Program-made: the position numbers and the translations under genes
Virus record (IMG/VR): IMGVR_UViG_3300050025_000126
Coordinates: 32,001 to 96,000 of that record
Source: a virus
Strand: one strand, 5' to 3'
DNA length: 64,000 bases
Part shown: positions 21,053-50,972 of the stretch, piece after piece
Layout: every line of letters starts with the position of its first letter
Numbering within the stretch: position 1 is the first letter of the stretch
Notes under the pieces: generated by a model
Told to the model about the DNA's origin: nothing
The model's database searches: none
Seen by the model: the letters and a program-made list of their open reading frames with translations, nothing else

Positions 21053-21529
21053 CTACTTCTTGTTCTTTTTGGCAAGCAATTTCTTTGTACGCTTTGTGAT
21101 TTCTAGGTCTACGAACAACCTGGCCATACGTAGCCGCTTGGGTTCTTCAAATGCGTCAAAAAACCACAAATAAAACAAGGCCTTCTCAATGTTCCTAGGT
21201 GCCTTCCCTACGATGGCGACAATCTTATTACCGCTCTGGTGGTTAAGGCACGAAGAGTCTTGCTTCCAGCGATTCTTTTTGTCTCCCTTACGGAACCTAA
21301 GGGTCTTTCCTGTCTGTTGAAAGTATTCCCTATTGACATACCAACGGGCCTTCTTCAAATCCTCTAGGGGGCTCCATTTGTTTTCAAAACGGAACAGATA
21401 CTTAAAGGCGTTCCCAGGATTAAATCCCATATATCCACACATTTCAATTGCTTCTATACCAGAAGGGTGCGAGGTATAATGCGCTGGGTGGTTTACGGGA
21501 TTGTTGACGAGCTTAGACTTTTTGGCCAT
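21053..21529 (-). CDS. DUF3310 / T7 gp1.7-like nucleotide kinase domain protein
   Basis: VNHPAHYT...IE.I....F..GNAFKY..R...K...EDLKKARWY. Confidence 0.8.
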   Translation of the reverse strand: MAKKSKLVNNPVNHPAHYTSHPSGIEAIEMCGYMGFNPGNAFKYLFRFENKWSPLEDLKKARWYVNREYFQQTGKTLRFRKGDKKNRWKQDSSCLNHQSGNKIVAIVGKAPRNIEKALFYLWFFDAFEEPKRLRMARLFVDLEITKRTKKLLAKKNKK

Positions 21530-21570
21530 ACTGGTAATTATACTCCGTTTGTTGAAATTGTAAAGCAAAA

Positions 21571-21720
21571 GCCTGAGGTAGGGATTGCACCTACACCGTC
21601 GTCGGTTCTGGCCTACGCCTTGATTGGATACTTGGGCCGAGGCCTTGCGCCTGTCAAGGTTGGTAGGATTACTAAGACGAAAGTTCCCTTAAGCCGCTAG
21701 CAGCACTTCGGAACTCAGTT
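21571..21720 (-). ncRNA. 150-nt tRNA-like RNA with a large nested hairpin replacing the anticodon loop
   Basis: CTGAG/CTCAG acceptor core, T-arm GTAGG-TGCAATC-CCTAC, TCGTC/GACGA stem enclosing CCTAC/GTAGG and CCTTGA/TCAAGG. Confidence 0.55.
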
Positions 21721-21722
21721 CG

Positions 21723-21844
21723 TGTACAGGTTTGGAATCGAACCAAAAATTCCACCGGTTCAAGGTGGTGATTTACCTCTGCGTATCTGTAGATGTGGGT
21801 GACTATAGATTCCACAACCCAGATTATCTTTAATCTACCTGCAC
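21723..21844 (-). tRNA. tRNA-like (anticodon GAA) with a 58-nt D-loop
   Basis: Acceptor GTGCAGG/CCTGTAC, D-stem GATT/AATC, CCACC-TTGAACC-GGTGG, T-arm TTTGG-TTCGATT-CCAAA. Confidence 0.65.
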
Positions 21845-21853
21845 GTATTAAAT

Positions 21854-21916
21854 TGGTGCGGAACAGCGTCTTATACGGGGCGATAGCGCCTATCTCATAT
21901 AGGTCCGATGTTCCGT
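21854..21916 (-). ncRNA. 63-nt CCA-ended mini tRNA-like RNA
   Basis: CGGAACA/TGTTCCG stem followed by C-ACCA; small internal hairpins. Confidence 0.4.
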
Positions 21917-21917
21917 T

Positions 21918-22018
21918 TGGGCAGGAGGAAGGAATCGAACCTTCGGTAGAGCGTATTCGTTAGAATCTTGCTCTGGCGGTCGTAATGCTGCTGTGTCTAC
22001 CACTTCACCACTCCTGCC
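21918..22018 (-). tRNA. Leu-type tRNA-like RNA with aberrant anticodon arm and ~30-nt variable arm
   Basis: GCAGGAG/CTCCTGC-CCA, D-arm GTGAAGTGGTAGACAC, T-arm GAAGG-TTCGATT-CCTTC; anticodon stem poorly paired. Confidence 0.6.
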
Positions 22019-22022
22019 ATAT

Positions 22023-22155
22023 TTGCCCTCTTGTAGCTTTTTATCCGGATTAGTTATGCTACGACTGTAAGGTCGGTAAACGTCATTCCTTACTGTTCTG
22101 CGGATGCTCTCCAGCTGTCAATGACCGACTGGCATATCTACCACCGCAGGGGCAA
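22023..22155 (-). ncRNA. structured four-way-junction RNA (strand inferred from the cluster)
   Basis: Closing stem TTGCCC/GGGCAA with arms CTGCGG/CCGCAG, GTAAGG/CCTTAC, GTAGC/GCTAC. Confidence 0.45.
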
Positions 22156-22161
22156 TGTTAA

Positions 22162-22410
22162 TTACTTCTTTGCAATCGGATTAAACAGACTGAACCCAAT
22201 AAAGTAAATAGGTACAACTACCGTCTCTACCAAAAGAGCTGTCCAAATAATATTTCCTACGCTTACCTCATAGCGGATTGTGGGGTCTTTGTTTTCGTCC
22301 TTGTTCAGTAGGCCATATGTAGGCTGACACTTACCTTCGATTACCTTTGGTTCTCCACACCCAACCATTAGACAGGCGCTTAGAACCACGGCAGCAATCA
22401 ACTTCTTCAT
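22162..22410 (-). CDS. small lipoprotein
   Basis: MKKLIAAVVLSACLMVGC lipobox; additional hydrophobic helix. Confidence 0.7.
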   Translation of the reverse strand: MKKLIAAVVLSACLMVGCGEPKVIEGKCQPTYGLLNKDENKDPTIRYEVSVGNIIWTALLVETVVVPIYFIGFSLFNPIAKK

Positions 22411-22634: not shown

Positions 22635-22678
22635 TCCTTTCGATTTTGTAATTATATCAGGTTTCTTTTTGTTGTCAA
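22635..22678 (-). promoter_or_regulatory. sigma70-like early promoter with conserved leader
   Basis: TTGACA-16-TATAAT followed by TACAAAATCGAAAGG; near-identical leader at 23046..23070. Confidence 0.7.
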
Positions 22679-23107: not shown

Positions 23108-26100
23108 ATGAGTATTTCGTCGACACCAACGCCCCAGTCGTATCAGCAAATTTTAGGTGCTCAGCTTAACACTGTGCGTAGTAGACTTGGGTTAAGGAAA
23201 TTCAAACCAGGTGGCCAATTCCTCACGATTTTCGAGGCTTCTGCCCAAAGTGACGCCCGTATTTCCGCCGACGTTTTCAAAGGTTTACTATCACAGGACC
23301 TGGATGCGTCAGAAGGCATTGTTCTAGACCGTATTGGTAATAGCGAAGGTGTGCCACGACGCAGCAAGAAAGCTTCTCAGGGTCAGATTACAGTTACCGA
23401 CCCATCGTTTCAAAAAGTTTCGTCTACTGTATATCATGGTAAGCCAGCTCCTATCGTTGGCTCAGTGTCGGTATATGTAAGCAAAGGTAGTACGTTTGAT
23501 TTAGCCCCTCCCACAGGTCAAGTTTACCTAGGCCGAGGAACAGTTAATTACGAAGGGCCTCTAAGCTATTCAGCTAAAACAGATTCTGGATCTTGCTGGA
23601 CTCTGACCCTTTCGTCAACTACTAAATTCCACAACCAAGGCGAATCTGTAATCTTAGCTCAGGGCGGCAATAGGCCTATCCAAATTGGTCAAATCGTTTC
23701 AACTACCCAAGGCGCCTCGACTGCCCCCGTCACCTTTACAACTGCCCAAGCCGCCGCTGTAGCCGATGGTGAAGTACAAATAGACCTAGTCCCTATTACT
23801 TGTACGGTCGATGGCATTGCCGGTAACCTAGCTCCTAATAGCATCGTCTCGTTTGGCGACTCTCCTCCATTTACAAACGCAACAGTTACCAACCCCAAGG
23901 CTATTAGCTTCGGTAGAGATGTAGAACAAGACAACGATTACAGAGATAGAATTAGGCAGGCAAGAGCTGACAAGCAAAGAGGGACAGCTACCGCCATTAA
24001 AGGCGCCGTTATTGATATAACTACCTCCGATGAAACCTCTTCTGTTCTTTCAGCTAATGTAGTCAAACGCAAAGACAAGCCTACCGTTCTATATATTGAT
24101 GATGGTAATGGATATGAAGAAAAGTCTGATGGTGTAGGTTATGAAACCGTTGTAGACCAAGCTGCTGGTGGAGAGACAGATTTTCTATCTATTATGTCTC
24201 CTATTGCTCAGGCCTATGTAGAAGCAACTAACCAAGCTCCTTATACAATTCTAGACGGAACAACTCTTACAATTAGAGTTGGTGGAGTAAGTTCTACCCA
24301 CTACTTTGATTCAGCTACTTTTACTTCACCTCTATCTGCGTCATCTTTTGATGTGGTGTCGTCTGTAAATGCTAATTCAAGCCTTCTATTCCAGGCTAGA
24401 CTTGCTCAAAACACAGCTTCAGTTGCTTTCTACGCAAAGTCAGAAACCAATGATGACCTACAGGTTATTCTGGCTCCAGACCCTACTATGGATGCGGCAG
24501 TTGTATTGGGATTAAGTACCGCTCCAGTCTACACTACTTCTCTGTATAGAAACGACGTTCTTCTTTCTAAGGATGGTCTTTTAGCTCAAGTCGTATCGAA
24601 TCCTTTCTCTACTTGGTCGCCTTTGTTTACTTCTGAAACCCTTATCGTAAACACTGACGCAACAGGTAATATCACCGTTACAATTAATGACACGGATTTT
24701 CAAAACCTTGGATACCCAGCCCTAAGCAACGCCGACCCTAAGACTTGGGCTGACGTATTGTCCCATAAAATCCCAGGCGTAACCGCTACAGACGAAATCG
24801 ACAAAGTAATCCTTACCTCTAACAAAGGCCGCTCTTCGTTAGCGTCTGTTTCTATTATAGGAGGTACTCTTGTAACCAAGGGCGTATTTGCTCCTTCTTC
24901 TAGTTTTGGTGTTTCTAACGACTATAGCGTAGACCGTTCAGTCGGAGCGATTGCTATAAACACATCTTTGATTCAGGACGACCTTTTAAGCCTTGGTACT
25001 CAATGGTCAGAAGCCTTTATTGAAACCGACTTCGGCTATAACTTTATCGACCTTACCTCTGACGCTTCTTATTATCTAATTGTTGACGATAATACCTCCG
25101 AGATAATCCCAACCAGTATGTTTAGAGCCGGTCTCTTTACGGCACAGCGTTTTGAAAGTTCTCCCCTCTTTACCTCTTTTGATATTTGTGATGGAACTGC
25201 TCCTGGCCCTATTCTTCCAGATATTACAGTTCCTGGCGCAGCTGATGGTGATTGGGTTTTGTTGACTGACCCTGCTTTTGATCCTACTTGGAAAGGTGTT
25301 TACAGGAACAGCGCAGACAACCTAATTAGAATTATCAAAGACGCAGATACAGCTACTAGAATTGGTCATACTTCTACAGCTCTGGATGGCACTGCTTCTC
25401 TGTTTGTGTTAATTTGCGGCGGGTTAACTACTATTCAAAGCGGCGTTGGTTTGCCTGGGGCCATTAAGGGACGTGGCGTCACGGGGAATTGTCGTCTATA
25501 TGATGCTAATTTAGGTGCGTGGATTCAACTACCCGATTTGATTACTCCTAGAGCTTACCACACCGCAACTCTTTTGCCAAGTGGTAAGGTGTGGATTACT
25601 GGCGGATTTGACGCATCTGGCAATCCGTTGGCGTCAACCGAAACTTTCGACCCAACCACAAGAACCTTTACTGCTGGGCCTCCTCTTCCTATTAGCTCTG
25701 TAGACCTTACTCCTCAACCCAGAGTCCACCATACGGCGACCTTGTTGACAAATGGTCAGGTGGTTGTTGTAGGTGGATGTAAGACAACCGCTTTGGGTGA
25801 CTCAGCCCTAAACACAAGCGTTCAATACGAACCAATCACAGGAACCTATCTCCACGACGGCACCCTCCATGTCGCTAGATATGGGCACCAGGCTCTATTA
25901 GACGTCACCCAAGACCTTGTTATTGTTTTTGGGGGTGTCTCTACCATTGCAGCCCCTGCCACGCCTATAACGAGCGTAGAGAGCTATACAGACACTGTCT
26001 CCACTTGGTTTAATAGAGTCCCCATGACCAGTGGCAGGGCGTTCTTTGGTGCTGAAAAGATTCTTGGGGGAGCTAATAGTAAAATCGTTGTAGCCGGTGG

Positions 26101-29100
26101 CTCGCTGCATCTATTTTCAGACAACTCTGTAACCACTACGGCAGCTACAGGTACGTATCAAACCTATACTCCTGCTACCGACAGCTGGACTACAGAAAGC
26201 AATATCAACACAAACGTTCCTACTATAACTATAAATTTTGCTCAAAGCGACCTGGTAAGAACTTATACAACAAATACCGTTATCTTAGGCGGACTTGCTA
26301 GCCAGCTTCTAAAATACAACAATTCAACGGACGCTTGGGACGCTTTAAGTGCCGACCCAGGTATCAGCCTTTATATTGTCAGTAGGGAAGGGTTTACAGC
26401 ATCAGCCCCTATAAGTGGTGGTCCTAAGGGCGATAACTGTGCCTGGTTTGGTGGAGCTATTCCAAACTCGACTTCAGAACAGAGCTTCCAAGGCATCGCT
26501 AACGTAGACTTTTTGGATACGGTGGTAAACCTAAGAAACCATCCATATCCTGTGTTTGCTTCTCTAGCTCTAACAAATGGTCGAGTTACCGTTGTAAGAA
26601 GCGAAACTCCTCCAGATGTAATTACTGTGCCTGCTAATGGTGGAACTTTCTATACAGCAGATTCCTTTGCTCCAGCCATTAACTTAATCGCTCAAAACGA
26701 AGTAGCAAAAGTAAAAGACACTACCAAGGTAAGGCTGTCAACTCTATCTACCGACGGGTCTATTTCTATTGTTGACCAAGACACGACCCTACCTGTATTC
26801 GCACCTAAGAAGACAGTTGTAAGTCAAAGGTCCCAGCACGCTATCGTTGTTTCTGGTAGCGATATCTCTGTTCCTTCTGGATTCCAACTACGCACTGTTT
26901 CATCTAAGACGGCCAACTCAACCGGGTTACCTCAATCCGTCATTCTTCCAGACTATGGCCCTGAATTAGACTTAGGACACATCCCAGAACCGCTAAATAT
27001 TAACGGTAAGGTTGTAGGACTAAAAAATATTCCGTTTGGTGGTCCGCCAGTAATTTCCAGATCAACCGATTTTGGCTTTGGCGACGCTAAAGGTGTTACT
27101 TCGCTTATTGGTAGTTTTAGCAGCCCAGGAGTTTTTGAAGAGACCTCAACCTCTACAGTTTCTTCTTTGGGTTCTTACCTTGGTCTTCGGTCTGCTTTGC
27201 CTGTGACCGTTGGTAACCCCGTTTATGTAGCAGAGCCTTTCAAGTTCTCAGTGTCTGACTTTCTGGACATAACCGTTGATGGAGACAGCTCTACAAAGCG
27301 ATTCTCTGTTCCTATGGCTAGAAAGATGACTACTGTTGGTAGCTATCAATCTCCCCTAACGCTTAAAGACGCCGACAATTCTAATTCTACGATTGCCACT
27401 GCCTTTGGGACTGACTATAGCTTTGACGACTTTGCTATTCTTTCAAGGGCTAGGGTAATTTCAGACCCAGCTGATGTTAGCAAGCGGGCCTTGTGGCGAT
27501 ATTACCGATACGGTGAAGAGGGCAACTATGCCTCTGTAAGGTACGTTTGGCCAACAGGACCCAACCAACCTATATCCGTGTCTGCTAGTTCTGTTCAAAA
27601 GCCCTCGGACTTTTCTTATTATAAAGGCCTCCCCAAGGCAACTACCGATATCAATATTGGAAGCGGAGCATTGCGCAAAAACCGTAATATTTCTCTTAAT
27701 ACCAGAATTGGTGTAGGTAAAGGTAGCGTAATCCTTACAAGCAACAACATTTGGACAGTTACATTACAAGTAGGCTTCACAGTTGTTAATGCTAGTCGAC
27801 TTGTTCTCAATGGAGACACAACCCTTAATATTACCACTCTGTTTGGTCCAGGTCTACCCGGCCCAGGTCTAAATCCTGGCGATGTTTTATGGTTTGAGGG
27901 AAGTTCTCCGGCTTCTTCTACTTTGCAAACCGGGCAGTTTGTAATTAAAACCATCGCTCCAGCAGGGCCTCCGGGGGCATGGACAATCACTATCAACTCC
28001 ATGATGTTGAATGATGGTACGATTTGGCCTCTTACAGCCAATCCCGGTACGATTAGCACAGACCCAAATCAAAAAGCTAAGTTTGACGATGAAGTTCTTG
28101 TAGGAGATTTGATCTCCTTTAATGATCCTACTGGCAATCTGACAAGTGAAGTTATGGCTATTTCGGTTATTGACCCAAATCGTCAATACATTGAATGTAA
28201 CGCCGTAAACTTCAACCCAACTCCTGTAAGCACATTAGCTTACGGAACGATGCCCAAGCTAACCGACCTACAAATCTTTGCTCCAGCTTCAAATACAATT
28301 ACTTCTGTCGTAGCTGCCGTTAACGCCAATCCTAATAGCCCCATCCAAGGAACTGTGACGGGTACGGGCGCAGGCATTATCAATACCGCTAGTTGGGTTT
28401 CTGGTTCCAACGCAGATTTTAGGTACAATCTAAGCGACGGTATCAATTACGTAGCAAACACCAACAAGCCCGCTAACCCAACCATCCAAACCACGTTCTA
28501 CCTTAAGTTGCCGGTAACAGGTTCCTTAACAACAAACAACGATTTCGCAAATGAAACGTTTTACGTCATTCCTCAATTAGCTTCATCGGTTGTTAAGTGG
28601 CTAAACACTCCACCCGTAACGGGTTTGTGGTCAGTTGCGTCAATAACTACTTGCGCGGATGGTAGCAAGGTCCAAATTAAATCCAACACTGCCGGAAGCG
28701 CCGGGTCAATTCTTGTTGAAGGCGGCACTGCAAATCTAAAAACTGCCGCAGTAATCGGTCAGGCCACAGAAAGTCAATTTAACAGCAACCTAACCAGCGG
28801 CTTAGTCATTACCACCACAGCCGCTGAAGCTGAAGGGTTTTGCGGCAACTCTTGGGTAGAGCTTAATAATACCGAAAGACTTCCCAAGCTAGTCGATACT
28901 TCTCCTAATTGGTCTGGAAATACAATTACGTCGATTTCTCCTGGTGGTCTAATCACATTTTCAGCTCCTCCCTATTACCTTTCTGATCTTGGAAGTGGCT
29001 CGCCGGTATTCTTCACTGTAGAAAAAGTAGGCAAATACGTAACTATAAACCTCCTTAAGTCATTCTGCGATATTTCTCTATTTCACGCCCCTACAGACTG

Positions 29101-30049
29101 GATATGGTTACAGGATTCAATTATATCGGGTATCTTCAAAATCCTTAGAGTTTCTCAGACCGAATCGGCCTATACATATTGGATTGATTATCCAGAAGCA
29201 ATTGAATCCACAGCTGGTCATAGCCTAGTCCATACGATTTCTGGATATAGCCCTATCCCAGGCGATACACTATCTATTAATAGCAACGTTTTTGGTGAAG
29301 CAAATCGTGGTAGTTGGATTGTTACTAACGTAGGCAATGGGTACACGGACAATACTCTAAAGGTGTCTGTGGTTGACAAACCTCTTGTTGCCTTTTCGGG
29401 TAGTGTATCTACAAAAGTAAAAGATGTCTCTGTTGTAGAAAAACTTCCTTTGACAGCAATCAAGAAATTGTTGTCCGTATCGCCAAATTCTGCGAACACA
29501 GAAAACGCAGACCTTCTCTTGGACGATGCGTCAAACATTGAAAGCTGGAGCCAATCTGCTGGCACCGTGTTGACATCTCTAAGCAAGCTGTCCTTCCCAA
29601 ATACAATTCAAGTGGGCAATGATGCCTATCGTTTCAATACCGGTCTAATCGCAGAGTCAAAGCGCGTCATTTACGGAGACAGCGCAGACGTTGATAACTA
29701 CCCAGGTTACGTATCAGATGGAGCAAGAGTCCTAATTCAAGGTCCAACTATCAAGCAAATAAAGCTAATTCTTCAGGTAAGACTCCAAAGCAACGATATT
29801 ACATCTGCTGATATCGTAGGGTCTATAAAGTCTGCTGTAGCTGGAGTCGTAAATTCTTCCCCTGTTGGATTCCCGATTGCTATTTCAGACATCGTCTCAG
29901 CTGCACAAGCCATTAGCGGCGTTATTGCCGTTAGCGTGGTTTCTCCCGCTTACAGCTCTGTGCAAGACCAGATTCCAGTAAGAGGTCAAGAAAAGGCTAT
30001 GGTTGTTGACCTTGATAATGATATCAAAATCCTAATCGTAGGTAACTAA
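23108..30049 (+). CDS. giant baseplate wedge protein (baseplate J-like N- and C-termini) with an inserted Kelch beta-propeller
   Basis: LDRIG...GV.R, G..GNL....I, VTNP....GRDVEQDNDYRDRIR...RGT..AI; C-terminal I.ISDIV......GV..V; Kelch repeats such as RAYHTATLLPSGKVWITGG. Confidence 0.8.
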   Translation: MSISSTPTPQSYQQILGAQLNTVRSRLGLRKFKPGGQFLTIFEASAQSDARISADVFKGLLSQDLDASEGIVLDRIGNSEGVPRRSKKASQGQITVTDPSFQKVSSTVYHGKPAPIVGSVSVYVSKGSTFDLAPPTGQVYLGRGTVNYEGPLSYSAKTDSGSCWTLTLSSTTKFHNQGESVILAQGGNRPIQIGQIVSTTQGASTAPVTFTTAQAAAVADGEVQIDLVPITCTVDGIAGNLAPNSIVSFGDSPPFTNATVTNPKAISFGRDVEQDNDYRDRIRQARADKQRGTATAIKGAVIDITTSDETSSVLSANVVKRKDKPTVLYIDDGNGYEEKSDGVGYETVVDQAAGGETDFLSIMSPIAQAYVEATNQAPYTILDGTTLTIRVGGVSSTHYFDSATFTSPLSASSFDVVSSVNANSSLLFQARLAQNTASVAFYAKSETNDDLQVILAPDPTMDAAVVLGLSTAPVYTTSLYRNDVLLSKDGLLAQVVSNPFSTWSPLFTSETLIVNTDATGNITVTINDTDFQNLGYPALSNADPKTWADVLSHKIPGVTATDEIDKVILTSNKGRSSLASVSIIGGTLVTKGVFAPSSSFGVSNDYSVDRSVGAIAINTSLIQDDLLSLGTQWSEAFIETDFGYNFIDLTSDASYYLIVDDNTSEIIPTSMFRAGLFTAQRFESSPLFTSFDICDGTAPGPILPDITVPGAADGDWVLLTDPAFDPTWKGVYRNSADNLIRIIKDADTATRIGHTSTALDGTASLFVLICGGLTTIQSGVGLPGAIKGRGVTGNCRLYDANLGAWIQLPDLITPRAYHTATLLPSGKVWITGGFDASGNPLASTETFDPTTRTFTAGPPLPISSVDLTPQPRVHHTATLLTNGQVVVVGGCKTTALGDSALNTSVQYEPITGTYLHDGTLHVARYGHQALLDVTQDLVIVFGGVSTIAAPATPITSVESYTDTVSTWFNRVPMTSGRAFFGAEKILGGANSKIVVAGGSLHLFSDNSVTTTAATGTYQTYTPATDSWTTESNINTNVPTITINFAQSDLVRTYTTNTVILGGLASQLLKYNNSTDAWDALSADPGISLYIVSREGFTASAPISGGPKGDNCAWFGGAIPNSTSEQSFQGIANVDFLDTVVNLRNHPYPVFASLALTNGRVTVVRSETPPDVITVPANGGTFYTADSFAPAINLIAQNEVAKVKDTTKVRLSTLSTDGSISIVDQDTTLPVFAPKKTVVSQRSQHAIVVSGSDISVPSGFQLRTVSSKTANSTGLPQSVILPDYGPELDLGHIPEPLNINGKVVGLKNIPFGGPPVISRSTDFGFGDAKGVTSLIGSFSSPGVFEETSTSTVSSLGSYLGLRSALPVTVGNPVYVAEPFKFSVSDFLDITVDGDSSTKRFSVPMARKMTTVGSYQSPLTLKDADNSNSTIATAFGTDYSFDDFAILSRARVISDPADVSKRALWRYYRYGEEGNYASVRYVWPTGPNQPISVSASSVQKPSDFSYYKGLPKATTDINIGSGALRKNRNISLNTRIGVGKGSVILTSNNIWTVTLQVGFTVVNASRLVLNGDTTLNITTLFGPGLPGPGLNPGDVLWFEGSSPASSTLQTGQFVIKTIAPAGPPGAWTITINSMMLNDGTIWPLTANPGTISTDPNQKAKFDDEVLVGDLISFNDPTGNLTSEVMAISVIDPNRQYIECNAVNFNPTPVSTLAYGTMPKLTDLQIFAPASNTITSVVAAVNANPNSPIQGTVTGTGAGIINTASWVSGSNADFRYNLSDGINYVANTNKPANPTIQTTFYLKLPVTGSLTTNNDFANETFYVIPQLASSVVKWLNTPPVTGLWSVASITTCADGSKVQIKSNTAGSAGSILVEGGTANLKTAAVIGQATESQFNSNLTSGLVITTTAAEAEGFCGNSWVELNNTERLPKLVDTSPNWSGNTITSISPGGLITFSAPPYYLSDLGSGSPVFFTVEKVGKYVTINLLKSFCDISLFHAPTDWIWLQDSIISGIFKILRVSQTESAYTYWIDYPEAIESTAGHSLVHTISGYSPIPGDTLSINSNVFGEANRGSWIVTNVGNGYTDNTLKVSVVDKPLVAFSGSVSTKVKDVSVVEKLPLTAIKKLLSVSPNSANTENADLLLDDASNIESWSQSAGTVLTSLSKLSFPNTIQVGNDAYRFNTGLIAESKRVIYGDSADVDNYPGYVSDGARVLIQGPTIKQIKLILQVRLQSNDITSADIVGSIKSAVAGVVNSSPVGFPIAISDIVSAAQAISGVIAVSVVSPAYSSVQDQIPVRGQEKAMVVDLDNDIKILIVGN

Positions 30050-44003: not shown

Positions 44004-44585
44004 ATGTATCAAGAAAATCGAGTTACAACAAAAGAATTCGGGTCACTGGCTACTAGCTCTGACCTGTTAGTAAACGTTCCTACAGCTCCTGGACACCCCC
44101 AACAACGCCTACATGTAGTTGCCGCTAAACTATTGGTTCCCATGTCTGAAGCCGTACAGAGAGACCTGGGCTTTCCTCTACTGGTAGCCTCAGGTTGGCG
44201 CCCTCATCGTTGGGCGTCTAGAGAACAGTATGAACAGGTTCTGATTCAAAAATATGGAAGCGTAGCTAAAGGTAGATTATATTTGGCTTTTGACTCACCA
44301 CATGAAACGGGCCTAGCAATGGATCTAGGTTGTGGCGGACTTGAACCAGTTTCAGCAACAATTGAGAAGCAAAAATCAACCCCTCTGTTTAAATGGCTTG
44401 TTGAAAACGCTTATAAATACAATTTCACTCCATACCGCGTTGAGTCATGGCACTGGGAATGTCGGATTAGCTTAAACGCATACGATTCTGGAGTAGCAGA
44501 CAACACCACTCCAGAACCCGTAACTACTTGTATGGACCCAAATGACGTTTGTATCGAAACGGTTACAGCCCCGCTAATGCCCTAG
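44004..44585 (+). CDS. M15 (VanY-like D,D-carboxypeptidase/L-Ala-D-Glu peptidase) putative endolysin
   Basis: SGWR, SPHETGLAMD, ESWHWE; AATCTT 6 nt before ATG. Confidence 0.85.
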   Translation: MYQENRVTTKEFGSLATSSDLLVNVPTAPGHPQQRLHVVAAKLLVPMSEAVQRDLGFPLLVASGWRPHRWASREQYEQVLIQKYGSVAKGRLYLAFDSPHETGLAMDLGCGGLEPVSATIEKQKSTPLFKWLVENAYKYNFTPYRVESWHWECRISLNAYDSGVADNTTPEPVTTCMDPNDVCIETVTAPLMP

Positions 44586-46017
44586 CTCTAATTACGTCAA
44601 ATCCTTCTTCGTAGACAAACTTACCGTCTACCCAAACCGGTTGCAAAACGCTTAGGGCTTCTTGTTCTGGTGTTGCCTGGCTTATTAGTTCAAGCTTACC
44701 GTTTGCATTAGGAATCACGGCTAGGCGACCTTTAGCAGAATTCTTCATGCCGTTATCTGTAATTGGCTTCTTGAAAATGTCGTAGCCTTTGCCATCGATC
44801 TGAACCCAGGTAGCCTTCATGGCGAAACCAAAGGTGTCTCGCGTCACGTATTGATATGTGAAGCTGCCGATACCAAAGACCATATTGCCAGAAGCAAAGC
44901 CTTTCTTGGCCAAACCGTTGCAAATTGCCTCACAGCGCTCAAACGTAATAGAGTCGCCGTAGATGCATCCGATGTGCTGGTCAAGTAGTCGGTGCCCGGT
45001 ATTAGTTTCCGTGCCTCCAAAGACGTCCCAGAGGCATTCCACGACGCCTTTATAGGCAGGGCTGCCAACGGCTGCGTCTGGGTCGCCACAGATAATCTTT
45101 ACAGGGTCTCCGCTATCTGGCCGAATGACCACTTTGCCATAACGCGCCATAATCCTAGTCTTAAGGGCTGGCAGAATCTTGGTGAGAACGGCCCAAAGGT
45201 CCCAAGTATCTGACACAATGCTTACAATGCCAGCAGGGTAGAGGTCAAGAAGACGTTCAAAGGTCTGCTGTTCGGACATTTCGCCACCAGCACACATGAC
45301 GCTGTGTTCGGTTGCCGCAACGCTTCCACCAATAAAATAATCTGAAGGTGGAGTATAGTAATCCTCAACAAAATCCAAGGCCGGAACCGTATCTGTACCG
45401 ATAAAATACAACAAGTGCCCCGCTCCAGACGACGCAGCCGCTTCAGGACAGCCCATACCACGGAAGCTAAAATCATGTCCCTGCCAGCCGACAAACCCAT
45501 CGGGGCTACCAGTTAGCTTGGCCTTCTCATTCAAAAGCTTGCGCATCCTAGAAGCAGTAGTAGCAGATGTACAAGGCATCCATAGGACGCAAGACATAAT
45601 TGTCTCAAAGTAGTTGACCAACCAGGCAAAATCTTTGTGGGTGTTTTCAACTGTCAGCATCGGGCAGCGAAGGGGGACCTTAGAACCCTCCTTGACGGCA
45701 GAAAACTTGAGAGGCAGGTAACCTAAATTGTGTAGTTCGCGAATGTGGTCTGAGCCAATTTGGTTTGGGCCAAGATAGCCATTGACACGCTTGGTATATC
45801 GGTCGCAGACTTCATCAACGTTAGAGGTAAAGAACTTGTTCCACTCTGCCATCATGTACTTCTTGAGGAAGAACTGGAGGCCGAAGAAAACAACCTCGTC
45901 CTGGGCAGCGATACGGGACATCCTGGGGGTCCAGTTGCTGTATACAAATTCCGTACATGTAGGATATTGACGCCTATGGTCAAATTTGTATCCGTCAATC
46001 ATAGTTTCTGGCTTCAT
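44563..46017 (-). CDS. nicotinamide phosphoribosyltransferase-like (probable Namat of NARP1)
   Basis: DGYK..H..QYP, HDFSFRG, ATEHSVM, SIVSDTWD, VIRPDSGDP, IYGDSIT. Confidence 0.9.
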   Translation of the reverse strand: MKPETMIDGYKFDHRRQYPTCTEFVYSNWTPRMSRIAAQDEVVFFGLQFFLKKYMMAEWNKFFTSNVDEVCDRYTKRVNGYLGPNQIGSDHIRELHNLGYLPLKFSAVKEGSKVPLRCPMLTVENTHKDFAWLVNYFETIMSCVLWMPCTSATTASRMRKLLNEKAKLTGSPDGFVGWQGHDFSFRGMGCPEAAASSGAGHLLYFIGTDTVPALDFVEDYYTPPSDYFIGGSVAATEHSVMCAGGEMSEQQTFERLLDLYPAGIVSIVSDTWDLWAVLTKILPALKTRIMARYGKVVIRPDSGDPVKIICGDPDAAVGSPAYKGVVECLWDVFGGTETNTGHRLLDQHIGCIYGDSITFERCEAICNGLAKKGFASGNMVFGIGSFTYQYVTRDTFGFAMKATWVQIDGKGYDIFKKPITDNGMKNSAKGRLAVIPNANGKLELISQATPEQEALSVLQPVWVDGKFVYEEGFDVIRARALAGL

Positions 46018-46886
46018 TAGTAATTACCTTTCATCAATTGTTCACAAATTTCAATAACTTTTACACCTGGAATGTCTTCTGGCCGATTTACAATCGAATC
46101 AGTAGTATATACGTTTTCAAACCGCTTAGTCAAGGCTTTCGTTCCTTGGCTGAAAATACCGTGAGTTACAAAAAGGTCCGCATTAATATTGCTCTCTGCT
46201 AACTTATCACCGAGGCCTAGAAAGGTTCCTCCACCGTCGCAAATATCATCCACAATCAAAACCTTGTCTGTAGGGGCAAATGGTTCATGACCAAATCCTG
46301 TAATTTTGCCGTCTTTGACATCTCTAGACTTCCAGGCGTGGATAAGAGGAACCTTCATAGCCTTAGCAAACATCCCAGCACGCTTTTCAGCTCCTGCGTC
46401 TGGGCTAACTACCGCGCAATACTTTGGTTGGTAAAAATATCCAGAAAGGTGAAAAGCTATGTCGCTATGGACGACTTCGCAATTATTGATAAGGCCTGCA
46501 ATTACCTCAGAGTGTGGGTCCAGGACGATAACCTTCCTAAACTGACGCTCATTAATCATATTAGCTACAGACTTAGCTGTAAACAAGAAGTCTCCTGTAT
46601 TGTTCAAACGGTCTTGTCGTGCTCCTGGAACCGAGGGAAGGACGAGTGTTGGCAGGTCGTATCCACGCCACTTAAAGGCATCTACAAAAAACAATGCAGC
46701 AAGTAAATCTGTCATTGTAAGAGGCCTTACGAGGATAGATTTAAGGCTACCTTCAAATGGCCGAGCCTGACCCATAACGTAATACTTTGGGTGTTGTACA
46801 ATAGGAACATTGTCAGGATAGACGTTGTTGTCGATCTCGATAATTTGATTGGTGTTTGTTAGAGCGTGGATTCTTACGTTTTTCAT
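46017..46886 (-). CDS. ribose-phosphate pyrophosphokinase-like (probable Adps of NARP1)
   Basis: PGARQDR, LDPHS, VSPDAGA.KR, LIVDDICDGGGTF. Confidence 0.9.
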   Translation of the reverse strand: MKNVRIHALTNTNQIIEIDNNVYPDNVPIVQHPKYYVMGQARPFEGSLKSILVRPLTMTDLLAALFFVDAFKWRGYDLPTLVLPSVPGARQDRLNNTGDFLFTAKSVANMINERQFRKVIVLDPHSEVIAGLINNCEVVHSDIAFHLSGYFYQPKYCAVVSPDAGAEKRAGMFAKAMKVPLIHAWKSRDVKDGKITGFGHEPFAPTDKVLIVDDICDGGGTFLGLGDKLAESNINADLFVTHGIFSQGTKALTKRFENVYTTDSIVNRPEDIPGVKVIEICEQLMKGNY

Positions 46887-47959: not shown

Positions 47960-49063
47960 TTATTCAGTTATACCGATTAGTTTCATGTATGCGCCTAGAG
48001 ACAGTTTAGGTGATGTCAGACATTGAGCGGCTGACGCTCCGGTCTTGCGCATCTGGAAGAGAATAGAGGCGAACGGATACTTGGTAGCTTCCAGGGCGAA
48101 TTCCTTTTGGTTCTCAATATGCTTGATAGACTGATATGCCATAAATGCCGTGAAGCGACAATTAGCGTCTAGCTCGAAAATCTCGTCAAAAATCTTCCTC
48201 AATTCTGGGAAGCTATTGAGGGCCAACCCAAATTCAGAGGCTTCCCCCTTCCTAATTATTTCGCACATTCTCTTCTTGGACAAAGAGTCCTTGGCGTGGT
48301 GCAACATAACGTAGGCTGGCGACTTGATTTTAACACGGTTGAAATTGGCGTCAACTACAACGTACCCCTCGTGCTCCAAAGGATTAAGGGCTTCTGCTGC
48401 TTTGATACAATCATCAACAGAATGGAGAGGAAAGCTCTTAGGACAGGGGGTGTTGAGCTTATGTCCTAGCCCCAGCATATTGGGAGTTAGCTCCTGTAGA
48501 GTGGTGTTGTCCCTAGCTCCTAGTAGCCAAATTTTACAATCCTTATGGTCGACTACAACCCTATTGAAAGGTGTGGTTAGTTCAAAAATCCAGGTGTAGC
48601 TTGGGCCTAAAAATTCAATCGTTGCTTTTTGGGCTTTAACAGTCTCCCAGAATAGCTCCTTGAAGGTCTTGCCAAAGCCGTTTACTTCACCAGATGCGTC
48701 AGGGGTTCCAGATGTTGCAATGTGCCACTTGTTGTCGTAATGGTAAAGCAGAATGAGGCTTCCGTCAATTTTTTCTTGCACCTCCGCAGTAAGCCAGTCG
48801 ATGTTTGCGGCTAATGATTCGCTCTGGTTGTGGATTTTTTTAAATCCCATTGCCACAACGTTCCAATTGTCCGATTCGTCAAGTATGATTCCTCGGGCCT
48901 CTTGAACGATAGGCTCTTTGAACGGTGAGTCAATTTGATTATATTTAAAAAGACAAAGCTGCGGGTATTCACCGTGGCGCTTACAATCAATAGCAAAACG
49001 AGACTTTAGCTCTTCGATGCCATTTGGCGTTTCTCGTAAGAATTTTTGAGTTTCTAGTTCCAT
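47960..49063 (-). CDS. T4 Rnl1-like RNA ligase
   Basis: EARGIIL, EKIDGSL, FEL.TP.N..V, EGYVV, RVKIKSP.Y. Confidence 0.85.
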   Translation of the reverse strand: MELETQKFLRETPNGIEELKSRFAIDCKRHGEYPQLCLFKYNQIDSPFKEPIVQEARGIILDESDNWNVVAMGFKKIHNQSESLAANIDWLTAEVQEKIDGSLILLYHYDNKWHIATSGTPDASGEVNGFGKTFKELFWETVKAQKATIEFLGPSYTWIFELTTPFNRVVVDHKDCKIWLLGARDNTTLQELTPNMLGLGHKLNTPCPKSFPLHSVDDCIKAAEALNPLEHEGYVVVDANFNRVKIKSPAYVMLHHAKDSLSKKRMCEIIRKGEASEFGLALNSFPELRKIFDEIFELDANCRFTAFMAYQSIKHIENQKEFALEATKYPFASILFQMRKTGASAAQCLTSPKLSLGAYMKLIGITE

Positions 49064-49118
49064 GATTCTGTGATTCTTTTAATTAACGCTTCCAAATATC
49101 TTCAAAAATACAAGGGAA

Positions 49119-50102
49119 TTAAGCACTCTTTCTCAAAAGATACCCCTCGCCAATCATCTTTAGGATAACTCTGCCGCACTTGTGGTCCCATCGCTCTTTA
49201 ATGGGCCGTGCAACGAACCCCTCTCGCACGTGGTCAGCGTTCGGCAATGTCGTCTTGCCTTCGGCCAAGGACAGTAAATTTTGCGTCCAAGGGCCTCTGT
49301 ATAGCTCTGGAGCTGTATTGAGGTCTAGCTTAGATATTAGAGCCCTGAAATCGTCATAGTCTAAGTAACGCCGTGTGTTTACATACATTGCGTCAAAGCA
49401 AATAAGTTTAACGCCAGAAGTAATACCATAACGCAAGTCTTGAACCTGGCCGTAAGCCTCTCCATAAACAGCAATGTCTGGAATAGTAGCTAATTTTTCT
49501 TGCAAAAAGTAATCTGACGCCAACTTCCACCACAAATTACGTTCGTCAAACTTTTTAACGTTCTTGTGCGATCCAACCCACAACCGGTTGTTTTTAAACA
49601 GGAACCTTGAGTTTGATCCGTGTACCTTCTCGGTTAAGACCACTTCCTCACCCGTAACAAAGACCCCCTTATGCTTCCTAAGCCCCTCAATGTCAGTATA
49701 GACAGGTAGGAACCCTGGGTCAGATTCGTTTTCGGTATTCATATATTCAGCCCGGTCTAGTTCTGGCTCCCACTTTTCAATGCCGAGCACCTTTTGGACG
49801 TTTTGGCCCTCTATCCATTCTGGCAAAGCCTTGGTAAATAGCCCCATAGAAAATACACCACGAAGCTTCCTGGCCTTAATGCGTCGGTGACCACTTAGAA
49901 AGGCCCATTCAGGCGAATCTGGCACAATAGAGTCAACTGGCACATAAGTTGCAAGCTGGCCTTCTTCAAAGTCTCCTGTGCGAAAAATAACAGGATACCC
50001 TAGCTCCTTATCCCCATCAATATAGGTAATAGACAAGGTATCAGCGTTAGGGTGCTTTTCTACTGGGCCTATTTTTACGACTCTTACATTAAATTCACTC
50101 AT
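49119..50102 (-). CDS. RNA ligase, DRB0094/Rnl2-like, with N-terminal OB domain
   Basis: HPNADTL, KLRGVFSMGL, TEKVHGSN, GEAYG, REGFV, ILK.I...YL. Confidence 0.85.
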   Translation of the reverse strand: MSEFNVRVVKIGPVEKHPNADTLSITYIDGDKELGYPVIFRTGDFEEGQLATYVPVDSIVPDSPEWAFLSGHRRIKARKLRGVFSMGLFTKALPEWIEGQNVQKVLGIEKWEPELDRAEYMNTENESDPGFLPVYTDIEGLRKHKGVFVTGEEVVLTEKVHGSNSRFLFKNNRLWVGSHKNVKKFDERNLWWKLASDYFLQEKLATIPDIAVYGEAYGQVQDLRYGITSGVKLICFDAMYVNTRRYLDYDDFRALISKLDLNTAPELYRGPWTQNLLSLAEGKTTLPNADHVREGFVARPIKERWDHKCGRVILKMIGEGYLLRKSA

Positions 50103-50115
50103 ATTTATCCTTTTG

Positions 50116-50203
50116 TAGAGGTAGTAGGAGTTGAACCTACACAAACCTTGTTAGGGTCTCACGTTTATAGAACATGGGCTTTAACCAATTAAGCTATACC
50201 TCT
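50116..50203 (-). tRNA. atypical tRNA: loop TCTATAA (anticodon TAT, Ile-like; C33) with a long variable arm
   Basis: AGAGGTA/TACCTCT, GCTT/AAGC, CATGT/ACGTG, AGACC/GGTTT, GTAGG-TTCAACT-CCTAC. Confidence 0.75.
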
Positions 50204-50501: not shown

Positions 50502-50563
50502 AAAATAGGAGCAGGAGACTAACCGACTGTCTTACAGCTTCCCGTATGCGAACGCATCTTGTT

Positions 50564-50594
50564 TGGCTGCCAGGGATTGAACCTGGGTTCCCGC
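50564..50594 (-). pseudogene. tRNA 3' fragment (T-arm only)
   Basis: CCAGG-TTCAATC-CCTGG-CAGCCA with no 5' half. Confidence 0.45.
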
Positions 50595-50598
50595 TTTG

Positions 50599-50672
50599 CC
50601 CCTCCCCGTAGAATCGAACTACGACCTCTGCCTTTTCAGGGCAGCGCTCTAACCAATTGAGCTAGTGGAGGG
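50599..50672 (-). tRNA. tRNA-Phe(GAA)
   Basis: CTGCC-CTGAAAA-GGCAG, canonical D and T arms; one acceptor bulge or mismatch. Confidence 0.85.
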
Positions 50673-50776: not shown

Positions 50777-50779
50777 TTG

Positions 50780-50920
50780 TGATATGAATAGGAGTTGCAC
50801 CCAGCCGAAGATACCTTCATCTTAAATGTACCTCTCTTCGGTTCAACTGCTTGAATCTAGCGGCGATCACTCCGCGTAGTCATTCAAGCCGTAGCAGATT
50901 CTACTCTGCCAGTTCATACC
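50780..50920 (-). ncRNA. 141-nt expanded cloverleaf tRNA-like RNA
   Basis: 8-bp acceptor GGTATGAA/TTCATATC, 6-bp D-stem GGCAGA/TCTGCT, GCTTGAAT/ATTCAAGC arm, CCGAAGA/TCTTCGG arm, TGGG-TGCAACT-CCTA. Confidence 0.6.
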
Positions 50921-50943
50921 GTTATTTTGTTTTCGATTTATGT

Positions 50944-50972
50944 ATACTAACCTATCCCCAACCCACTGTCAA
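50944..50972 (-). promoter_or_regulatory. sigma70-like promoter of the tRNA/ncRNA-RNA ligase cluster
   Basis: TTGACA-17-TAGTAT, about 24 nt upstream of the first RNA. Confidence 0.7.

Follow-up and report, generated by a model that had tools for sequence, protein, structure and literature searches.

What kind of RNAs does a phage make from a noncoding stretch that folds like an array of transfer RNAs (tRNAs) but in which no unit has a standard anticodon arm? The stretch, cluster 1, is ~0.6 kb long (positions 22155 to 21571, minus strand). It lies between an operon of small open reading frames (ORFs) and the promoter of a DUF3310/DNA-ligase operon, in a 64,000-nucleotide window that comprises bases 32001 to 96000 of the 107-kb IMG/VR record IMGVR_UViG_3300050025_000126. 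The record derives from an uncultured phage and is ~65% complete by CheckV. Phage tRNA clusters are usually read as a codon supply or as spares against tRNA-cutting defenses. Here, most of the array is no longer tRNA, yet tRNA-like bodies within it appear to be under clear structural selection. With a confidence slightly better than even, we favor the explanation that a phage tRNA array has given rise in cluster 1 to tRNA mimics that do not decode, are processed by tRNA enzymes, and probably act in a conflict over host tRNAs. Comparison with a relative indicates that two of its units, M2 and M5-M6, are RNAs under structural selection and not decayed genes.

Five folded units fill the stretch

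Folding of the whole stretch and of its parts divided it into five minus-strand units separated by spacers of 0 to 9 nt: M1 (133 nt), M2 (102 nt), M3 (63 nt), M4 (124 nt), and M5-M6 (147 nt). All five fall outside the canonical tRNA format of ~70 to 95 nt with a standard D arm, and a D arm with GG in its loop occurs in M2 only. M2, M4, and M5-M6 each have a T arm followed directly by the strand that pairs to form the acceptor, and each enlarges a different part. M2 has an expanded variable arm and M4 an expanded D region, and in M5-M6 the extra sequence occupies the anticodon-arm position. None of the five has a canonical anticodon arm (5-bp stem, 7-nt loop, U33, and a purine at position 37); in M1 and M3, the arm is absent altogether. 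ARAGORN reported just two odd tRNAs, one in M2 and one in M4. Against the gathering cutoff of 29 bits, the Rfam tRNA model (RF00005) scored M2 above it at 37.6 bits and M4 below it at 24.3 bits. No other Rfam family matched anywhere in positions 21400 to 22300 at an E value of ≤10, and M1, M3, and M5-M6 matched no family.

An earlier note on this DNA, made from the sequence alone, had described a gene-free stretch tiled by five minus-strand folds, three of which keep an acceptor stem and T arm with a different arm expanded in each. Folding bears this out, as do ORF and Pfam checks (Pfam gave no match to any of the four small ORFs in the stretch). The matches to known Rfam families, such as transfer-messenger RNA (tmRNA) or Y RNA, that the note had named as refuting evidence were looked for and are absent from the interval just given. 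Its description of the units as "none canonical" stands in that M2 lacks a workable anticodon arm, but needs the rider that M2 passes the Rfam tRNA threshold.

A 6- to 7-bp "acceptor" beside a loose T-like hairpin is frequent by chance in this phage genome, so the acceptor of M4 by itself proves little. The weight rests on the strict UUCGAUU T loops and on comparative data, not on acceptor stems alone. Near-identical strains in other metagenomes show five substitutions in positions 21700 to 22099, none of which breaks a stem; one forms a U·G pair, one repairs a mismatch, and no deletion was seen. The array inserts form their folds independently, and a search of the genome turned up no second copy of an insert or of M1, M3, or M4.

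One syntenic relative carries the comparison

Direct searches returned little. Queried by blastn and megablast, neither the stretch nor a surrounding 20-kb segment matched any of 50,697 phage records; locus searches anchored on single DUF3310 and ligase proteins found no related loci, and none of 115 ligase-homologue loci contains a homologue of the array stretch. Scanned for the M6 T arm (GTAGGYGCAAYYCCTACC), IMG/VR yielded at least 118 matches (loci L145 to L262; 85 distinct). One of these, L256 in the 66-kb record G004, is a true syntenic relative: its RNA array is preceded by a promoter and a small ORF and followed by a TTTACA promoter and a DUF3310 gene, whose product is, by eye, ~85% identical to that of this phage. 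Its array runs in the order "a," a long element ending in b' (a 104-nt tRNA-like RNA), "c," canonical tRNA-Asn, tRNA-Tyr, and a counterpart of M5-M6. Comparative support rests on one informative relative, G004.

Element "a" of G004 (L256 2305-2378, minus strand) is a 74-nt cloverleaf with a 7-bp acceptor, 8-nt anticodon-like and T loops, and an encoded ACCA (z = -3.1); neither ARAGORN nor Rfam calls it. Rfam Y-RNA and YrlA models gave no match in L256 1600-2420 at an E value of ≤5.

The T arm used in the scan, GUAGG-UGCAAYY-CCUAC, which has G for U at T-loop position 55, is itself widespread in phage contigs (the matches counted above). Among those listed, 45 of the 85 distinct matches have a perfect 7-bp acceptor and 29 of the 85 an encoded N73 plus CCA. 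In the sequence context supplied, ARAGORN overlooked 92 of the 118 listed matches; several fold into oversized RNAs of tRNA-like form. UGCAAYY is a common variant of the T loop in phages, shared by genuine tRNAs and by many tRNA-like RNAs that escape ARAGORN.

M5-M6 is one conserved RNA with a rod in place of the anticodon arm

M5-M6 folds as a four-way junction without a variable region. Its anticodon arm is replaced by a 90-nt rod that has a conserved internal loop and a YUCG loop at its tip. Aligned by RNAalifold with its G004 counterpart (L256 1648-1808, minus strand), it yields 38 consensus pairs, of which 13 are compensatory and none is broken. When the 3' partners were slid by 1 to 3 columns as a control, pairing fell to 30 to 46%, with 0 to 1 compensatory pairs. 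A second control, 300 column shuffles that kept the conservation pattern, placed the alifold energy of the real alignment at z = -6.0; the shuffles had a mean of 2.1 compensatory pairs and a maximum of 7, and 13 was reached in 0 of the 300.

Conservation of sequence is concentrated in two places. The 25-nt hairpin core in the D-arm place, CGAAGUGCUGCUAGCGGCUUAAGGG, is identical in both phages amid otherwise diverged sequence. In the rod, the internal-loop letters UAGUA and CCAGAA are likewise identical, and the helices on either side of them covary. We take AGUA opposite GAA to lie in the register of a loop-E/sarcin-ricin-type motif, and the GAAGU/UUAA loop of the hairpin presumably resembles a UAA/GAN loop.

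A covariance model run over ~1.2 Mb of phage loci and five whole kin records recovered both source copies and weak tRNA-like matches, with no further copy of M5-M6 in that set. A pattern scan of IMG/VR with the M5 core matched L256 only, scans of genome contigs with the M5 core and the M6 T arm found nothing, and antisense targets of the M5 core in the phage genome were at chance level. An M5-like flank motif in L037 1-177 was dropped, as it folds no better than shuffles.

M2 keeps a tRNA body and has a broken anticodon stem

ARAGORN reads M2 either as a 99-nt Gly-acc tRNA or as a Leu-caa tRNA with a 13-nt "intron," and the fold of the single sequence has a z of -3.0. Its orthologue is the 99-nt element "c" of G004 (L256 1986-2084, minus strand). 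In a hand-registered alignment, the two are related by six compensatory pairs, three in the acceptor, two in the outer stem of the variable arm, and one in the T stem; the D arm is identical, as is the inner variable helix (AAR/AC loop, AUUC/GAAU stem). The anticodon stem is intact in "c" (5 bp, with the 8-nt loop GUGAAAAA), whereas M2, and M2 only, has lost three of the five pairs. The most favorable stem that M2 can form instead has 4 bp, with an A·C mismatch, and closes an 8-nt loop lacking U33. That mismatch is mended by a substitution present in a near-identical lake-metagenome strain. Because the body stems are compensated or identical and the anticodon stem is broken, the comparison indicates that the tRNA body of M2 is under selection and that its decoding end is not kept in standard form. 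The proposal in the earlier note that tRNA ends serve as a scaffold fits this pattern.

The acceptor end has a further feature. G22018 (position -1) can pair with C21920 (position 73), and "c" keeps both G-1 and C73, with A1·C72, which is a matter of sequence potential only; the CCCAA tail is kept in both. Bacterial tRNA-His is marked at its acceptor end by such a G-1 paired with C73. Neither M2 nor "c" has GUG as the anticodon of a normal loop, and we do not claim membership in tRNA-His. A scan of IMG/VR with the variable-arm motif of M2 revealed no homologue among the at least 118 matches listed.

By their covariation with the one relative, M2 and M5-M6 thus appear to be more than chance folds. 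The earlier note had named covariation in homologues as a test, and the outcome is divided: M2 and M5-M6 covary with G004, and M1, M3, and M4 have no counterpart there.

M1, M3, and M4 have no supported counterpart in G004

M1 has neither a T loop nor a tRNA score. Short contigs from two lake metagenome studies match this 90-nt part of it alone (22110-22021), at ~85% identity; the indels in these copies break reading frames, and the sequence on either side of the copies is unrelated. In our reading of the match table, the stem of its 3' hairpin is GUGGA/UCCAC in these lake contigs instead of GUAGC/GCUAC, a compensatory change. These matches place part of M1 in a different genomic setting. IMG/VR pattern scans with the M1 core gave chance matches in coding DNA only.

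M3 mimics only the acceptor end of a tRNA: its end stem is followed by C and ACCA (21857-21854) and then by an AU-rich trailer (AUUU). The 11-mer CGCACCAATTT, which spans the stem end, ACCA, and AU trailer, occurs twice in the 107-kb record, in M3 (21860) and in cluster 2 (50683), both on the minus strand; GCACCAAT occurs nine times, three of them in the RNA clusters (21860, 50683, and also 50304). An encoded ACCA with an AU trailer thus follows M3 and two cluster 2 elements, and the canonical tRNAs of cluster 2 have no encoded CCA. G004 and the more distantly related G001 have ends like that of M3 as well, with a stem, ACCA, and A/U in succession.

M4 has an intact anticodon stem with GAA in the loop, but C at position 37 and a D loop without GG. 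ARAGORN makes a poor 71-nt Phe-gaa call, and removal of 21821-21770 leaves a 71-nt cloverleaf in which C37 persists and the D arm is poor. In the alignment with G004, M4 falls where that relative has a normal tRNA-Tyr.

None of these three units has a supported counterpart in G004; M3 and "a," and M1 and b', were compared as possible homologues and found no support. The earlier note had argued that the inserts are base paired and selected for structure. They are paired, and selection is indicated for M2 and M5-M6; for M1, M3, and M4, the figures are single-sequence z scores, and structural selection on them is plausible.

A second cluster and two RNA ligases in the same phage

Cluster 2 (~50950-50100) contains three canonical tRNAs, including a standard tRNA-Phe(GAA), and several odd elements. 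Its first element (50778-50945, minus strand) is a giant cloverleaf of ~165 nt that is 77% identical in G004 (L263 2782-2950, minus strand). By RNAalifold it has 40 pairs, four of them compensatory, and z = -7.2. Its acceptor has 8 bp and its T stem 4 bp, its D-like, anticodon-like, and variable arms are extended, and its T loop reads UGCAACU here and UUCGACU in G004. A second element (50502-50602, minus strand) is a permuted tRNA-like RNA, 79% identical in G004 (L263 2688-2790, minus strand) with three compensatory pairs; its order of T arm, closed acceptor-like stem, and D arm gives it a YrlA-like topology.

Two RNA ligase genes lie directly downstream of cluster 2 (47960-50144, minus strand). 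The first encodes a protein with a Pfam RNA_ligase domain and a PHA02142 OB-fold, and the second an RNA_lig_T4_1 (Rnl1-like) protein. The closest readable ligase relative is L037, a 4-kb contig with 80% identity, in which canonical tRNA-Tyr and tRNA-Ile(tat) genes lie upstream of the ligase operon, the place taken by the array in this phage. Searches of the 107-kb record found no match to a Ro60 (TROVE) gene and no nucleotidyltransferase of the PolyA_pol family (CCA-adding type).

The ligase of G001 (locus L124) is ~50% identical. This relative has a high GC content and 13 ARAGORN-called tRNAs, and two uncalled tRNA-like elements lie in gaps of its tRNA array (L124 1576-1682 and 1860-1950), one of which ends in CGGCCCC-ACCA-AUG and has the T arm GUAGG-CGCAACU-CCUAC.

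How the array may work, and what else could explain it

A tRNA-array origin is argued for by the canonical tRNAs in the G004 array (Asn and Tyr) and upstream of the ligase operon in L037 (Tyr and Ile). That the units are mimics and not decoders is argued for by the lack of a standard anticodon arm in every one of them. The array reading draws further support from cluster 2, with its conserved giant and permuted tRNA-like RNAs and two RNA ligases. Under the favored explanation, the five RNAs would probably be made as one transcript from the strong promoter at 22678, since there is a strong promoter upstream and no strong terminator inside the array. Host tRNA-maturation enzymes would probably cut the units apart: RNase P would read the acceptor/T-arm stack, and the encoded tails, ACCA-AU or CCCAA, would undergo 3' trimming or CCA repair. 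We infer that proteins able to recognize the shape of a tRNA may then be engaged by these RNAs, which would serve as decoys, sponges, or adaptors in the contest between phage and host over tRNA. Candidate targets are host tRNA-cleaving defense nucleases, modification or aminoacylation enzymes, and the phage RNA-repair ligases beside cluster 2. M1, M3, and M4 would be lineage-specific members of the same fast-changing array, with a less secure function.

Several points weigh against this explanation. M1, M3, and M4 lack a G004 homologue and have modest fold z scores (-2.2 to -2.6), which would also suit young, decaying, or neutral elements. The acceptor-like stem of M5-M6 has just 4 to 5 pairs, fewer than RNase P or a CCA enzyme usually needs. 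The covariation comes from a single relative, and the consensus fold was derived from those same two sequences. As a partner protein, neither a TROVE nor a PolyA_pol-family gene is present in the 107 kb, and the decoy function of the array RNAs is purely what we infer.

A more specific version, which we put forward as a tentative and somewhat doubtful possibility, holds that M2 and M5-M6 are new tRNA-scaffold RNA families and, together with cluster 2 and the two RNA ligases, form a tRNA-mimic counter-defense toolkit. In M5-M6, a minimal handle made of the acceptor and T arm would provide for processing and stability, and the rod, loop-E-like platform, and invariant hairpin would be presented to a specific host or phage protein. 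M2 would be an acceptor-competent body, possibly of the His type (G-1:C73), with an anticodon arm free to vary, and may soak up or mislead tRNA-directed defense nucleases or tRNA enzymes.

Could the units instead be unusual but working decoders? On this account, M4 and the pair formed by M2 and its orthologue would be charged with amino acids and decode in translation, with four-base or shifted codons read by the 8-nt loops, and M4 would serve as an insert-tolerant Phe tRNA that resists host anticodon nucleases. M2 does score above the Rfam tRNA cutoff and keeps GG and UUCG as partners in its D and T loops. The orthologue "c" has its 5-bp anticodon stem intact and U at the second position of the loop, with GAA inside it, and M4 has an intact anticodon arm with GAA and U33. 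However, the anticodon stem of M2 is broken and its alternative defective as described above, M4 has C37 and a D loop without GG, M5-M6, M1, and M3 have no anticodon arm at all, and cluster 2 already supplies a standard tRNA-Phe(GAA). We consider decoding unlikely.

Likewise unlikely, in our judgment, is that the array is a graveyard of mutated, insertion-bearing tRNA genes with no present function, save perhaps for the flanking promoters. Decay would account for the absence of M1, M3, and M4 from G004, for the position of M4 where G004 has an intact tRNA-Tyr and the intact tRNAs upstream of the L037 ligase operon, for the degraded anticodon stem of M2 beside the intact one of its orthologue, and for an array gene content that varies among the three relatives. 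It does not sit well with 13 compensatory pairs in M5-M6 and 6 in M2 at ~30 to 35% divergence with breaks confined to the M2 anticodon stem, with the invariant 25-nt core in diverged surroundings, with the absence of stem-breaking changes among the strain variants, or with inserts that self-fold and have no copies elsewhere in the genome.

We rate as quite unlikely a cis-acting module, in which the folds are cutting signals for RNases P and Z, or a terminator or insulator between operons, and the excised RNAs have no role. The array does lie between two same-strand operons, and the U-rich tract of its last unit overlaps the next promoter, an arrangement conserved in G004. One tRNA-like fold would suffice for this purpose, however, and five elaborate folds, an invariant core, and a conserved internal loop exceed the need; similar RNAs also occur in cluster 2, in a different setting.

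The least probable account, and a highly improbable one, is the suggestion in the earlier note that these are intron-bearing pre-tRNAs, with hairpins excised and halves rejoined by phage RNA ligases into normal tRNAs: an Rnl1-like ligase and a second RNA ligase are encoded beside cluster 2, odd inserts in phage tRNA genes are on record (Lak phages; PMC6784885), and M4 minus 52 nt gives a cloverleaf, but when every single deletion of 8 to 130 nt across the stretch was run through ARAGORN, a standard tRNA was restored in none of M1, M2, M3, and M5-M6. M2 gave calls only with malformed anticodons, M1, M3, and M5-M6 gave no calls, and M4 alone became a Phe-gaa cloverleaf, one that retained C37 and had a defective D loop. 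The long arm of M2 sits at the variable-arm position and recurs with covarying stems in the orthologue, the rod of M5-M6 bears conserved loop motifs, and no insert-free allele was seen in the G004 orthologues of M2 and M5-M6 or in near-identical strains. Because the deletion scan fails and the long arms covary in the relative, the extra helices appear to belong to the mature RNAs.

If the RNAs are processed and stable, they would constitute two new structured RNA families and a tractable case of tRNA genes becoming other tools. M5-M6, with its tRNA handle, rod, and conserved loop, offers a concrete bait for a bound protein. In the M2 pair, the anticodon arm changes and the rest is held, a pattern expected of a decoy or an escape variant in a tRNA contest.

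Coordinates and genomic setting

The features are collected in Table 1. The stop of the ORF at 22410-22162, whose start resembles that of a lipoprotein, forms the upstream border of the array stretch. No strong terminator-like site was found between the upstream promoter and the array or inside the array, and that promoter is the likely start of a predicted transcript common to the two small ORFs and the array. The downstream promoter begins 7 nt past the array, so that the U-rich tail of M5-M6 enters its -35 box; its sequence, UUUUGCUUUACAA, is conserved in G004.

TABLE 1 Features of cluster 1 and its flanks in window coordinates
Feature	Positions	Strand	Details
Upstream promoter, sigma-70 type	22678-22651	-	TTGACA-16-TATAAT, TG extended; 12/12 consensus match
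Small ORFs after upstream promoter, before array	22628-22410, 22410-22162	-	
M1, multibranched 133-nt RNA	22155-22023	-	Closing stem UUGCCC/GGGCAA; fold z = -2.5
M1 3' hairpin	22062-22033	-	GUAGC-20 nt-GCUAC
M2, tRNA-like RNA, ~100 nt	22018-21917	-	Rfam tRNA 37.6 bits; orthologue in L256
M2 acceptor	within 22018-21917	-	GCAGGAG/CUCCUGC, 7/7 pairs; possible extra G-1:C73
M2 D arm	within 22018-21917	-	GUGA/ACAC, GG in loop
M2 degenerate anticodon region	21991-21975	-	
M2 long variable hairpin	21973-21949	-	25 nt
M2 T arm	21944-21928	-	GAAGG-UUCGAUU-CCUUC
M3, rod-like hairpin, 63 nt	21916-21854	-	End stem CGGAACA/UGUUCCG; fold z = -2.6
M4, tRNA-Phe(GAA)-like RNA, 124 nt	21844-21721	-	Acceptor GUGCAGG/CCUGUAC, 7/7 pairs; fold z = -2.2
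M4 D-region insert	~21821-21770	-	~52 nt
M4 anticodon arm	21768-21752	-	CCACC-UUGAACC-GGUGG
M4 T arm	21747-21731	-	UUUGG-UUCGAUU-CCAAA
M4 A73	21723	-	
M5-M6, tRNA-shaped ~147-nt RNA	21717-21571	-	Covariation with L256 1648-1808 (-)
M5-M6 acceptor-like stem	21717-21714/21577-21574	-	4-5 bp
M5-M6 hairpin in D-arm place	21712-21686	-	25-nt core 21710-21686
M5-M6 rod in anticodon-arm place	21684-21595	-	~90 nt
M5-M6 rod 8x8 internal loop and enclosed helices	21675-21604	-	5' side 21675-21668 UUAGUAAU, 3' side 21611-21604 CCAGAACC
M5-M6 T arm	21594-21578	-	GUAGG-UGCAAUC-CCUAC
Downstream promoter-like site of DUF3310/ATP-dependent DNA ligase operon	21564-21537	-	TTTACA-16-TATAAT

Two other gene regions in the window drew our attention. 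Divergent from the RNA-array operon is a gene (23108-30049, plus strand) for a 2313-amino-acid protein with a baseplate-J-like N-terminal part and Kelch/beta-propeller repeats. At 44563-46886 (minus strand), a nicotinamide/nicotinate phosphoribosyltransferase-like gene lies beside a ribose-phosphate pyrophosphokinase-like gene and looks like a nicotinamide adenine dinucleotide (NAD)-salvage pair.

Comparison with known systems

The earlier note, taking clusters 1 and 2 together, had called them a candidate undescribed system. That is too strong, since small RNAs in the T4 tRNA cluster, phage YrlA-type RNAs, and tRNA inserts in Lak phages are already known, and a large survey lists tRNA-like candidate RNAs in viruses (PMC10690425). 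What appears to be new here is two RNA families, well backed by comparison and not represented in Rfam, one of which has an unusual design built on a long rod.

M5-M6 resembles the tRNA-like domain of tmRNA in that an acceptor and T arm are joined to a long helix that replaces the anticodon arm. Unlike tmRNA, it is only ~147 nt long and has no pseudoknots, no tag reading frame, no G3·U70, and no 7-bp acceptor; neither ARAGORN -m nor the Rfam tmRNA families matched in the stretch.

Class II and allo-tRNAs have long variable arms and unusual stems and also occur in phages (Mukai et al. 2017, PMC5389517). M2 and "c" are similar in their long variable hairpin, short D stem, and possible 8-bp acceptor. 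Allo-tRNAs, however, are charged decoders with a normal 7-nt anticodon loop, whereas M2 has no formed anticodon stem and "c" has an 8-nt loop.

The tRNA genes of Lak megaphages carry "enigmatic" inserts (Devoto et al. 2019, PMC6784885) and, like the array units, are phage tRNA genes with inserted folded sequence that are too long for bacterial tRNA finders. The Lak inserts lie in the anticodon loop, insert-free alleles exist, and removal leaves a normal tRNA. In the array, by contrast, removal of inserts restores no standard tRNA, and the long arms are shared with the relative and covary.

YrlA-type Y RNAs are tRNA-mimic noncoding RNAs with Ro60/Rsr partners, found in bacteria and phages (Chen et al. 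2014, PMC4201824). They share with the array look-alikes of the T and D arms and a long extra stem, and they, too, occur in phages and near RNA-repair ligases. YrlA is permuted, with its ends at the long stem and its acceptor closed, whereas the ends of M2, M4, and M5-M6 lie at the acceptor; a YrlA-like permuted topology is found in cluster 2, not in cluster 1. Also unlike YrlA, the array has no Rfam Y-RNA or YrlA match (21400-22300, E value of ≤10), and TROVE, usually a neighbor of the Y RNA, was not found in the 107 kb, a record estimated to be ~65% complete.

tRNA-processing enzymes free RNAC and RNAD (the species 1 and species 2 RNAs) of phage T4. Both of these small RNAs are encoded within the T4 tRNA gene cluster without being tRNAs themselves, and their role is still unknown (PMC3014915, PMC9697503). 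The array units resemble them as small RNAs in a same-strand phage tRNA array, one that in G004 includes canonical tRNAs, and M3, with its end helix and ACCA, comes closest to them in design, by description only. Unlike the T4 pair, the array has five different units, three of which combine a full T arm with one enlarged arm.

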